DNA from: Candidatus Omnitrophota bacterium
GTDB taxonomy: Bacteria; Omnitrophota; Gorgyraeia; Gygaellales; UBA12090
Length of the DNA stretch: 64,000 bases
Reading direction: 5' to 3'
NCBI GenBank assembly: GCA_030674475.1
Contig: JAUSCZ010000022.1
Coordinates: 2,628-66,627 of the forward strand
Both the position numbers and the translations under genes were made by a program. The notes under the pieces are model-generated. The model was not told the DNA's origin. It did not search any database and worked only from the letters and a program-made list of their open reading frames with translations. This document shows, piece after piece, positions 10,622-28,817 of this stretch. Positions within the stretch are counted from its first letter, which is position 1, and each line of letters begins with the position of its first letter.

Positions 10622-11133
10622 GGCGTATCCTTGTCTTTTGGTTCGCTGTTCTCTAACTTTTTAATTATATCCCGGACGCGCGCCGCCTCTTCAAAGTCCT
10701 CGATAGAAACAGCTTTTTGTAATTTTACCTTTAGTTCTTCAATATCGGATTTTGTCTTCAGAGGTTTGGCTAAAACCAGGGGCATCTTTCCGTAATGTTT
10801 ATTTGAGCCGTGGATGCGCTTAAGCAGGGGCAGAAGATATTTGCGGAAAGAATTATAACATTCGCTGCAGCCCAGACGGCCTACTTTCTTAAAATCCGCG
10901 TAGGTCAGCCCGCAGTTGGAACACTTGATTTTCAGGCTTTCCTTGGTTTCAATCGCCCCTTTCCCTAAATCCGAGAGCCCGGCCAACAGGTCAGCCAAAC
11001 CAAACTGCTGTTCCATCTCGCTGGATTTATTCTTGGCGCATTCCTCGCAAAGATGAAGCTCAGTCATCTGCTCATCTACAATTTCAGTCAGGTGCACTGT
11101 CGCGGGGTTGGCCGCGCATACATCGCATAGCAT
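10618..11133 (-). CDS. mcsA: McsA, activator of McsB with zinc fingers and a UVR motif
   Basis: Two CxxC pairs at the N-terminus (CDVCAANPA...CEEC) and a second pair further on (CSNCG...CSEC). C-terminal UVR-like motif (IEDFEEAARVRDIIKKLE). 4-nt overlap with mcsB. Confidence 0.75.
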   Translation of the reverse strand: MLCDVCAANPATVHLTEIVDEQMTELHLCEECAKNKSSEMEQQFGLADLLAGLSDLGKGAIETKESLKIKCSNCGLTYADFKKVGRLGCSECYNSFRKYLLPLLKRIHGSNKHYGKMPLVLAKPLKTKSDIEELKVKLQKAVSIEDFEEAARVRDIIKKLENSEPKDKDTP

Positions 11134-11170
11134 ATTTTCTCCTAATCTTTGACTCCCTTTAGCATATTAA

Positions 11171-25567: not shown

Positions 25568-25940
25568 TTAAGACAGGCTTACTGTAAGCCGAGTTTTGTC
25601 TTAGCGCGAAAAAACTTCGCGCTAAGAGCGGCTATTTCTCTCGACCCTGACGTTGCCGCCAAGGCTCATGCAGCCTACCCGTCCTGGCAATATCGCGCCT
25701 TACGGCGAACATTTAAAGCGGGCAACTTTTAACCAGGACCTATTTGGCCTTACTCCGCGCAGAGATTGCTCGTTTCACCCTGCAACCAATGTCTTCTGCG
25801 GTTACAGACTCGTCTCTGTGGCTCTAATCCTATCCTTCAAATAAGGATGCCCTGATGTTCTCAGGGTGCGCCGCCCTGGGGAGCCCGGACTTTCCTCCCC
25901 CGCCGCTAAAGCGGCGGGAGCAGCCGCTCATAAGCCTGCC
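25568..25940 (-). ncRNA. rnpB: RNase P RNA (bacterial type A)
   Basis: Minus strand contains GGAGGAAAGUCCGGGCUCC (P4 5' strand) and ACAAAACUCGGCUUA (P4 3' strand). A P1 helix GGCAGGCUUA/UAAGCCUGUC closes the molecule. About 373 nt, starting directly after the rnhA stop codon. Confidence 0.8.
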
Positions 25941-27558: not shown

Positions 27559-27954
27559 TTATGAAGGAAGGATTTTGCGCAGCATTTCCAGGAGGTCTTC
27601 AGCGGAAACCGGCTTGGCCATCATAAAATGTTTGCCGGATTTCTTGCCCCCTTCTTTTTTGCCTTGAAGTTCTTCTTCTTTGCTGAGGATTCCGGTGAGG
27701 AATAATATTGGGGTATGCGCGGTAGCGGGGTCATTGGAGATGATATCGGCAACCGAGCCGCCGTCTAATCCGGGAAGCACGATATCCATAATTATCAAAT
27801 CCGGATGATTGGCTTTGGCTAATTTTATTGCTTCTTCTCCGCTGGTGGTAGTAGATACAATATAATTAGCGCGTCTTAAGATGTTGCCCAAAGGTATCAG
27901 GACATCTTCTTCATCGTCAACTATTAATATTTTCTTTGGGTATTGAATCGCCAT
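27559..27954 (-). CDS. Orphan single-domain response regulator (CheY-like receiver)
   Basis: ILIVDDEEDV...DLIIMDIVLPGLDG...ILFLTG. 131 aa, no adjacent histidine kinase. Confidence 0.75.
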   Translation of the reverse strand: MAIQYPKKILIVDDEEDVLIPLGNILRRANYIVSTTTSGEEAIKLAKANHPDLIIMDIVLPGLDGGSVADIISNDPATAHTPILFLTGILSKEEELQGKKEGGKKSGKHFMMAKPVSAEDLLEMLRKILPS

Positions 27955-28163: not shown

Positions 28164-28512
28164 TGGGCAGGAGAGGATTTGAACCTCTGAAGCACAGGTG
28201 CAACAGATTTCAAGTGCCCTCAAGTTACCTCGAGGCTTGGACTATCTCATCACCATAGTTATTATATATTGAAAATATAATAACTTTAGGCGGCAGGCGC
28301 TTAGTCTCTGCACCTTCCATCGACAATGTCTGCCTGGCGGTAGACATATGCCGGGGCTTGGCTCAGGATTGCCCTTCGACTTGCGAAGACCACACATTCA
28401 TTACAAGCCGCTTCGGGTTTCCCTGAATTCACCTACTTTTACACCCCAACCTTTCGTCGGAGCGCTGCGTTCTAACACAGTCTGTCCCCTTTGACCACTT
28501 GGGTACCTGCCC
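28164..28512 (-). tRNA. tRNA-Tyr(GUA) interrupted by a group I intron. Exon 1 is 28477-28512, intron 28211-28476, exon 2 28164-28210.
   Basis: Exons join to GGGCAGGUACCCAAGUGGUCAAAGGGGACAGACUGU|AAAUCUGUUGCACCUGUGCUUCAGAGGUUCAAAUCCUCUCCUGCCCA. That is a class II tRNA with anticodon loop CUGUAAA, closely resembling E. coli tRNA-Tyr. Confidence 0.75.
28211..28476 (-). ncRNA. Group I self-splicing intron (about 266 nt, no ORF) in the tRNA-Tyr anticodon loop
   Basis: Starts with G after exon U and ends with G. IGS GCAG can pair with exon CUGU (U.G at the splice site). Core elements: P-like GAAUUCAGGGAAAC, Q-like AAUCCUGAGCC (UCAGG/CCUGA = P4), R-like CAGAGACUAAG, S-like GAGAUAGUCC (GACUA/UAGUC = P7). 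Confidence 0.7.
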
Positions 28513-28564
28513 AAAAAAGTTATTAACGATTATAAACTGTCAACTGAAAACTGTCAACTAATAA

Positions 28565-28637
28565 AGCTGGCGGCCCGAATCGAACGGGCGACCACCTCAT
28601 TACAAATGAGGAGCTCTACCAATTGAGCTACGCCAGC
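28565..28637 (-). tRNA. tRNA-Thr(UGU)
   Basis: GCUGGCGUAGCUCAAUUGGUAGAGCUCCUCAUUUGUAAUGAGGUGGUCGCCCGUUCGAUUCGGGCCGCCAGCU. Anticodon loop UUUGUAA. Confidence 0.75.
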
Positions 28638-28639
28638 AA

Positions 28640-28800
28640 ATTTCAAAATAACCAATAATCAATCATCAATAACCAAAGAATAACCAAACACCAAACATCA
28701 ATAACCAAACAATAGATTAGTTTTCCGATTTATCATTGATTATTGGTTATTGGGTATTGGGTATTGGGTATTTTTTGGTTATTGGATCTTGGTTATTGAT
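28640..28800. repeat. Long imperfect inverted repeat rich in AACCAA/TTGGTT, with a 3x GGGTATT tandem
   Basis: Left arm AATAACCAATAATCAATCATCAATAACCAAAGAATAACCAAACACCAAACATCAATAACCAAAC. Right arm ATCATTGATTATTGGTTATTGGGTATTGGGTATTGGGTATTTTTTGGTTATTGGATCTTGGTTATTGATTATT. Confidence 0.6.
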
Positions 28801-28817
28801 TATTTTAAATCACCGAT

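Follow-up and report, generated by a model that had tools for sequence, protein, structure and literature searches.

The classical list of bacterial tRNAs whose genes carry group I introns names tRNA-Leu, tRNA-fMet, tRNA-Ile and tRNA-Arg, but Williams (2020, bioRxiv 10.1101/2020.01.27.920355) has since expanded the hosts to 21 settings. One seed in that collection, Mba143.Tyr.4Ug, is an intron of a tRNA-Tyr gene at position 4, which lies between nucleotides 35 and 36 (35/36), with a U as the last exon base (U-1) and a G as the last intron base (omega-G). A survey of 4,934 complete genomes recorded 333 tRNA group I introns, 28 of them at 35/36 (Nakagawa et al. 2026, PMC13011429). Here we describe an intron with the same host tRNA and insertion point, located on the minus strand of a 64 kb stretch of DNA from a Candidatus Omnitrophota bacterium (contig JAUSCZ010000022.1), the whole of which is called the window below. 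An earlier note, made from the letters of this DNA alone, had proposed a tRNA-Tyr(GUA) gene split by a 266-nt group I intron, and both the identification and its coordinates proved exact.

Among the 28 introns at 35/36, 19 belong to Patescibacteria and the others to Cyanobacteriota, Nitrospirota, Bacillota_A, Bipolaricaulota and Pseudomonadota (PMC13011429). The same source lists one tRNA-Tyr(GUA) case at 35/36, from Patescibacteria (GCA_016699995.1), and at least one Omnitrophota entry, an IC3 intron at 33/34 of tRNA-fMet. It also reports that Patescibacteria 35/36 representatives from tRNA-Asn and tRNA-Asp self-splice in vitro, and it types the tRNA-Asn(GUU) 35/36 introns of Nitrospirota and Patescibacteria as IA1. 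A full-text literature search yielded no paper in which Omnitrophota are connected with group I introns of tRNA genes. The earlier note had judged tRNA-Tyr an unusual host and 35/36 an unusual site. The combination is indeed rare, but it had already been catalogued (Williams 2020; Nakagawa et al. 2026), and the hosts that the note named were those of the classical list, before its expansion. Thus the class is already on record and its mechanism is standard; this host phylum and intron sub-lineage have not yet been described for it.

An interrupted tRNA-Tyr gene

We put at roughly 0.9 the probability that this locus is a functional Omnitrophota tRNA-Tyr(GUA) gene, split between U35 and A36 by a 266-nt group I ribozyme that contains no open reading frame (ORF) and is predicted to splice. 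Four lines of evidence support this reading, namely the match to the Rfam model, the agreement of the splice junction with intron-less orthologues, the presence of 18 homologues at the same site, and compensatory covariation throughout a P1-P9 fold.

The Rfam scan that the earlier note had proposed as a check gives a match of the insert to Intron_gpI (RF00028), whose gathering score is 50; the match reaches 89.0 bits (E 2.1e-21) when the whole window is scanned, and 88.3 bits in a local scan. In its default mode, ARAGORN misses the tRNA-Tyr gene in the window; its intron option brings up the gene as tRNA-Tyr(gta) i(38,266), and the in silico spliced sequence is an 85-nt class II tRNA-Tyr cloverleaf. 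After intron removal, the molecule has the features of a bacterial class II tRNA-Tyr, including the anticodon GUA, a long variable arm, a G1-C72 pair and the discriminator A73, after which CCA is not encoded and a T-run follows. The best match to the spliced tRNA in E. coli is annotated as tRNA-Tyr at 75% identity over 88% of the length, a level of similarity that the phrase "almost base-for-base E. coli-like" in the earlier note had overstated.

A much closer comparison is provided by those Omnitrophota whose tRNA-Tyr gene at this locus has no intron (e.g., L074 and L025); the spliced tRNA is 95-98% identical to these genes. The anticodon loop reads CTGTAAA in every compared gene, spliced or intact, and therefore the splice junction is fixed independently of any intron model. 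The junction predicted beforehand, GACUGU/AAAUCU, matches these intron-less orthologous genes exactly. The intron thus has the hallmarks of the tRNA-Tyr 35/36 class, with CUGU at the end of the first exon (U-1) and omega-G directly before AAA.

As had been stated, this is the only tRNA-Tyr gene that ARAGORN and Rfam scans find in the 64 kb window, and in the 18 loci with the intron that are described below, a further tRNA-Tyr gene is likewise absent over a distance of 10 kb. The claim that the intron lacks an ORF also held. Judged by length and with no Pfam scan, no ORF of homing-endonuclease size is present, since none longer than 59 amino acids overlaps the intron and none longer than 51 amino acids lies mostly inside it. 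The longest ORFs overlapping the 266 nt, of 43-59 amino acids on both strands, cross conserved helices. The defining feature of a mobile intron, an endonuclease ORF inside the intron, is thus absent.

If the intron acts as other group I introns do, the pre-tRNA would probably be transcribed from its own consensus promoter, and the intron would fold into P1-P9 such that the guide GCAG pairs with exon CUGU and U35 forms a U.G wobble. The phosphodiester between U35 and the first intron G would then be attacked by an exogenous guanosine held at the bulged G-C pair of P7. Omega-G (28211) would subsequently replace this guanosine in P7, and U35, through its free 3'-OH, would attack after omega-G, joining U35 to A36 and restoring the anticodon loop CUGUAAA. 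In place of P10, the anticodon stem (ACAGA/UCUGU) is expected to align the exons, the role it has in other tRNA introns (Zaug et al. 1993, as cited in PMC13011429). We infer the splicing chemistry from established group I introns, and what is said here of the promoter and of exon alignment by the anticodon stem is to be read with the same reserve. A perfect TTGACA-17-TATAAT sequence upstream of the gene is likely its promoter, judging by the consensus match.

Fold, covariation and distribution of the intron

To place the locus in context, a comparative set was built from the NnrD-like protein encoded just upstream of the tRNA cluster. This set comprises 80 loci in species-representative genomes, all of them metagenome-assembled genomes (MAGs) or SAGs of Candidatus Omnitrophota, although some are mislabelled "uncultured Planctomycetales". 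The best NnrD match is 72% identical and comes from Omnitrophica WOR_2 bacterium GWF2_43_52 (L002). The gene order nnrD, tRNA-Thr(UGU), tRNA-Tyr(GUA) is conserved across Omnitrophota loci and serves as a syntenic anchor. The tRNA-Tyr gene is uninterrupted in 49 of the 80 loci, and in 18 it carries an intron at the same site. Seventeen of these are complete, with CAGACUGU followed by the intron and then AAAUCUG; their introns are 181-267 nt long and all end in CUUG. The remaining one, in L005 (UBA1562; 10985-11158), was missed by automatic tools because a run of N hides the end of exon 1 together with the beginning of the intron. When eight interrupted related loci were scanned, all matched Intron_gpI, at 83-107 bits. 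A search for hidden introns in loci for which no tRNA-Tyr had been called gave no Intron_gpI match in L007, L041, L042, L046, L058 or L071. In a further locus, L049 (11334-11403), the anticodon loop and variable arm are intact, but the gene stops before the T arm and unrelated sequence follows; this truncated gene may mark an integration site or a misassembly.

The intron in the window (Table 1) has a compact, Azoarcus-like architecture, with a GAAA loop on P2 (L2) docking on a receptor motif in P8, a GNRA loop on P9 (L9), and no P7.1/P7.2. The latter insert is absent because the 3' strand of P3 comes after P7 with only AG between. The P4, P7 and P1 pairings named in the earlier note (the last with U-1.G and CUGU/GCAG) are all present. 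The intron is about 65 nt longer than a typical relative, and all of the additional length is located in the tips of P5, P6a and P8, which still form hairpins. A starting and a terminal G had both been offered as hallmarks. Both are found here, and omega-G and U-1 are invariant in the relatives, but the first intron base can be G, A, C or U among them, and so a starting G is no hallmark.

Table 1. Features of the interrupted tRNA-Tyr locus, with positions numbered along the window
Feature	Positions	Strand	Description	Basis
tRNA-Thr(UGU)	28565-28637	-	directly upstream of tRNA-Tyr; part of the conserved order nnrD, tRNA-Thr, tRNA-Tyr	
sigma-70 consensus TTGACA-17-TATAAT	28529-28557	-	12/12 consensus matches; 17 nt upstream of tRNA-Tyr, between tRNA-Thr and tRNA-Tyr, in a duplicated TTGACAG motif	
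tRNA-Tyr exon 1	28512-28477	-	36 nt; acceptor 5' strand, D arm, anticodon stem 5' strand, C32 U33 G34 U35; ends ...GACUGU (U-1)	ARAGORN, spliced and unspliced; 95-98% identity to intact orthologues
P1	28480-28476 / 28469-28465	-	CUGU (exon) + G (intron) / guide CGCAG; loop UUAGAA; U35 (28477).G wobble at 5' splice site	
Group I intron	28476-28211	-	266 nt, ORF-less; omega-G = 28211	Rfam RF00028, covariation, ORF list
P2	28464-28442	-	9 bp hairpin, GAAA tetraloop (L2); -12.4 kcal/mol	compensatory changes at 6/9 pairs
P3	28436-28430 / 28299-28293	-	GUAGGUG / CGCCUGC	100% paired in 18-sequence alignment
P4	28426-28421 / 28368-28363	-	UCAGGG / UCCUGA; encloses J4/5, P5 and P5 extension	invariant
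P5 + extension hairpin	28417-28372	-		compensatory changes at 4/7 P5 pairs
P6/P6a	28362-28312	-	GCC/GGU + extended P6a hairpin; -18.0 kcal/mol	P6 pair 124-170 switches CG to GC
P7	28308-28302 / 28244-28239	-	G(A)GACUA, bulged A / UAGUCC; guanosine-binding helix; 3' strand preceded by J8/7 AUGAGA	
P8	28292-28251	-	CGCC/GGUG; CCUAAAG...CUAUGG tetraloop-receptor-like motif; long AU-rich distal hairpin; -12.4 kcal/mol	
P9	28235-28217	-	CCUCGAG GUAA CUUGAGG, GNRA loop; -10.8 kcal/mol	compensatory changes at 5/7 pairs
Tail	ends 28211	-	CACUUG after P9; last base omega-G	
tRNA-Tyr exon 2	28210-28164	-	47 nt; starts AAAUCUGU; A36 A37 A38, anticodon stem 3' strand, long variable arm, T arm, acceptor 3' strand	ARAGORN, orthologue identity

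The earlier note had also suggested folding the intron into P1-P9 with a guanosine site in P7. The window intron and the 17 homologues that are complete were aligned with MAFFT, 6 nt of exon being included in every case (alignment A1). The P1-P9 structure was drawn by hand according to group I conventions, because RNAalifold cannot draw a pseudoknot, and was tested against shuffled columns and against 3' partner strands slid out of register. Standard pairs occupy 97.6% of 1107 cells in A1, compared to 88.9% in column shuffles and 32-48% with slid 3' partners. Compensatory changes, in which both sides of a pair have changed, occur at 28 of 62 pairs, and none of 500 shuffles reaches any of five measures. 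These changes are abundant in P2, P5, P6a, P8 and P9, with two covarying pairs in P3 and one in P6.

A wider set was gathered by searching metagenomic sequence for an exact 18-mer across the P7/P3' junction (GTGCAGAGACTAAGCGCC). The string was found in at least 120 metagenomic stretches, of which at least 83 carry the tRNA-Tyr junction and at least 76 are new distinct sequences; 76 of these added to A1 give 94 sequences. In this set, every helix except P6a is 93.5-100% canonical, and P6a, the most variable hairpin, reaches 87.3%. P3, P6 and P8 all covary, as illustrated by P3 pairs 49-190 (UA in 67, CG in 20) and 50-189 (AU in 65, GC in 25). Thus a conserved P3-P8 core with the P3/P7 pseudoknot is supported by covariation. 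P7 is identical in all 94 sequences and the same as P7 of the Azoarcus Ile2 seed in the alignment of Williams. This guanosine-binding P7 with its bulged nucleotide is accompanied throughout A1 by omega-G, the introns ending in CUUG before AAAUCUG.

Within P1, the four exon pairs are invariant in A1, and the +1 intron pair covaries (GC, CG and UA), as it does in the 94-sequence set (GC 41, AU 9, CG 4). U-1 is paired with the G of GCAG in 17 of the 18 aligned A1 rows and in 90 of the 92 scored sequences of the wider set. The P1 columns of the MAFFT alignment are offset by 2 nt for the window and for L038, and the single A1 exception (L038) reflects this offset, because exon CUGU and guide GCAG are present in all 17 loci. 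A further signal appears to be tertiary. In the 94-sequence set, L2 is GAAA whenever P8 has the CCUAAAG...(A/U)(A/U)GG motif, a combination that most of the sequences show, and in all seven cases in which L2 is GUAA or GCAA, P8 has a plain UCC/GGA helix instead. The P8 motif is similar to the 11-nt GAAA receptor of classical type that the Azoarcus intron has in its P8. The core helices are preserved by compensatory changes between species with flanking proteins up to about 40% different, which is the signature of selection for folding.

Two automatic structures were set aside. In the Rfam alignment, P1 falls outside the gene, on the duplicated TTGACAG of the upstream promoter, which is a model artefact, the true P1 being CUGUG/CGCAG. 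RNAalifold, run on the MAFFT alignment, pairs the exon with the 3' strand of P7 and draws a false AGGUGC/GCGCCU helix. Also, in three homologues (L003 11780-11825, L009 7938-7983 and L078 11915-11960, positions approximate) P9 is followed by about 50 nt of additional, mutually homologous sequence, consisting of two extra hairpins before CACUUG, which the other 15 do not have.

Relationships, rival explanations and history

The published tRNA-Tyr 35/36 introns have the same host tRNA, site, U-1, omega-G and P1 (CUGU/GCAG) as the Omnitrophota intron, but their host phylum differs and the Tyr.4Ug seed represents a different lineage, with the J3/4-P4 core GAUAACGGUG where the Omnitrophota intron has AAUUCAGGG. 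When 21 published introns were scored against a profile of A1, Mba143.Tyr.4Ug was the lowest of all, at 6.2 bits, which gives no indication of common descent. The best scores, 65 and 59 bits, were obtained by Nitrospirota tRNA-Asn(GUU) 35/36 introns (IA1), followed by the Phe.2Ug, Asp.4Ug and Asn.4Ug seeds at 51-56 bits and IC3 introns of tRNA-Leu, tRNA-fMet and tRNA-Ile at 33-51 bits.

The tRNA-Asn(GUU) introns share with the Omnitrophota intron the insertion after CUGU, a P1 in which this CUGU meets an intron GCAGC, the P3-J3/4-P4 sequence GGGUGAAUUCAGGGAA, and the P7 strands GCAGAGACUA and GAGAUAGUCC. They differ in that their host is tRNA-Asn, not tRNA-Tyr. Furthermore, the Nitrospirota tRNA-Asn introns carry a P7.1/P7.2 insert of about 33 nt, an IA hallmark, between GAGACUA and AGCGCC, which is wholly absent from the Omnitrophota tRNA-Tyr intron; GAGACUA is directly followed by AGCGCC in 18 of 18 A1 sequences. 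At least about 13 metagenomic tRNA-Asn(GUU) genes (L092, L093, L112, L124, L126, L136, L147, L161, L162, L169, L175, L193 and L198) have 35/36 introns of 209-505 nt (lengths from ARAGORN, whose boundaries are shifted) with the identical 18-nt P7-P3' junction, and because this junction is the same, these introns also lack P7.1/P7.2 at that point. ARAGORN labels suggesting tRNA-Asp, tRNA-His and other hosts among the metagenomic copies were rejected, since by eye these are tRNA-Tyr or tRNA-Asn genes with a shifted boundary. The shared P1 and the roughly 13 insert-less tRNA-Asn copies point to a CUGU-targeting lineage that is shared by GUN-anticodon tRNAs. By its sequence, the Omnitrophota intron belongs to this 35/36 lineage, with tRNA-Asn introns as its closest relatives, and is not close to the published tRNA-Tyr intron.

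The IC3 introns of cyanobacterial tRNA-Leu(UAA) (34/35) and Azoarcus tRNA-Ile(CAU) (36/37) resemble the Omnitrophota intron in their small size, lack of an ORF and location in the anticodon loop. They also share the P4-P6 and P7 core sequences AAUCCUGAGCCAAG, GGUGCAGAGACUA and AUAGUCC, a GAAA loop on P2 with a CCUAAG/UAUGG-type receptor in P8, a GNRA L9, and the absence of P7.1/P7.2. In contrast, their hosts and sites are different and their profile similarity is lower (38-51 bits), and the Omnitrophota P3 and J8/7 (AUGAGA, as opposed to AAGGGA/AAGGCA in IC3) follow the introns of the Asn, Asp and Phe types. Overall, the subgroup features combine an IC3-like architecture (no P2.1, no P7.1/7.2, an L2-P8 receptor and a GNRA L9) with the highest sequence similarity to introns typed as IA1.

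Several observations weigh against the reading of a functional, long-resident ribozyme and must be accounted for. P4 and P7 are invariant and so carry no covariation signal of their own, P1 consists of only four exon pairs and one intron pair, and no convincing P10 was found when the P1 loop was searched for complementarity to AAAUCU. On neighbor-joining host trees built from one protein or from five proteins (1912 columns), intron-plus and intron-minus species are interleaved, the L002 intron is nearest to that of the host-distant L061, and the P9 extension is common to L003, L009 and L078, which come from different host clades. If the locus were a decaying relic, a pseudogene whose intron no longer splices while an intact tRNA-Tyr elsewhere serves decoding, the extra AU-rich length in P5, P6a and P8 compared with relatives of about 200 nt would fit, and with 64 kb of the genome visible a second gene could lie elsewhere. 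We nevertheless consider such a relic very improbable. Both exons are intact and nearly identical to functional-looking orthologues, every core helix is kept with changes that are compensatory across species, the additional length is confined to peripheral hairpin tips that still fold, and none of the intron-bearing loci has a second tRNA-Tyr nearby. The window apparently derives from a MAG and its sequence is otherwise found only on a 2.8 kb Logan contig, which might raise the suspicion of an assembly or binning artefact, but the same arrangement recurs in 17 independent assemblies, in L005, and in at least 76 further distinct metagenomic sequences. Similarly, an intron spliced by proteins through a bulge-helix-bulge motif would not be expected to match the group I model at 89 bits, and its usual site would be 37/38 (PMC4090602) rather than 35/36. 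Artefact and protein splicing are both effectively refuted. For a functional gene, since the ribozyme fold is evidently under selection and the locus is single and conserved, it is plausible that the organism depends on splicing for all of its Tyr decoding, as the earlier note had suspected.

Another reading keeps the mechanism and changes the history. The patchy distribution could have arisen by repeated recent lateral spread into empty CUGU/A sites, through reverse splicing or recombination, rather than by old vertical inheritance with losses. Close relatives do differ in this manner (L078 has the intron while L080 and L051 do not, as do L031 versus L024 and L009 versus L008), the L002-L061 similarity and the scattered P9 extension fit lateral movement, and the same core, with its 18-nt P7-P3' string and GCAG guide, is present in tRNA-Asn genes, which indicates at least one host switch. 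However, introns from more distant hosts tend to be more distant themselves (Mantel r = 0.45, p = 0.005), P5 and P6a sequence is common to L044, L048 and L078 within one host clade, no homing endonuclease gene is present, and the intron is always found in the same syntenic gene. Recent lateral spread as the main cause of the pattern is rather unlikely in our judgment. The clade mates L048 and L078 have mutually nearest introns, and one basal host group is wholly intron-minus. In Omnitrophota, the intron is probably a long-term resident of a single syntenic tRNA-Tyr locus. In view of the interleaving and of the features that conflict with the host trees, its history there is read as mostly, not purely, vertical descent with repeated precise loss, and some lateral movement may have occurred on occasion. 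Taken further, a scenario can be offered tentatively, at somewhat less than even odds, in which one CUGU-recognising lineage moved between tRNA-Asn(GUU) and tRNA-Tyr(GUA) and then became a long-lived, vertically inherited resident of the Omnitrophota tRNA-Tyr locus without P7.1/P7.2. If this is true, all Tyr decoding in about a quarter of the sampled Omnitrophota species would depend on RNA self-splicing.

Annotation hazards and neighbouring features

Introns at 35/36 present a hazard for tRNA finders. Even with introns allowed, ARAGORN mislabels tRNA-Tyr homologues as Ser(tga), Phe(gaa), Asp, Asn, His, Thr or Ala, because the intron boundary is shifted by 1-3 nt. Affected genes include L009 7705-8033, L056 11694-11977 and L062 11527-11806, as well as the metagenomic copies L098, L117, L129, L138, L139, L155, L166, L167 and L189. 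Since standard finders miss or mislabel the gene, Omnitrophota genomes will seem to lack tRNA-Tyr. These introns do not change what is known of how such ribozymes work. In the Omnitrophota set, numerous natural variants of a compact, roughly 200-nt ribozyme stand beside orthologous sites without an intron, so that the loss and gain of introns, and their switching of hosts among GUN-anticodon tRNAs, can be studied in a clean system.

Some neighbouring features of the window can also be noted. The spacer between nnrD and tRNA-Thr contains opposed heptamer arrays, about nine copies of AATAACC followed by about ten of ATTGGTT, its near reverse complement (28647-28708 and 28735-28804). After tRNA-Tyr, the window has a response-regulator-like ORF (27559-27954) and then tRNA-Met and tRNA-Val; in most relatives, the next gene after tRNA-Tyr is tRNA-Gly (e.g., L013 10136-10206 and L061 11890-11960). 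A bacterial class A RNase P RNA is located 2.2 kb from the gene, on the minus strand at 25569-25939 (180 bits), and has an insertion of about 26 nt in one helix relative to the Rfam consensus.

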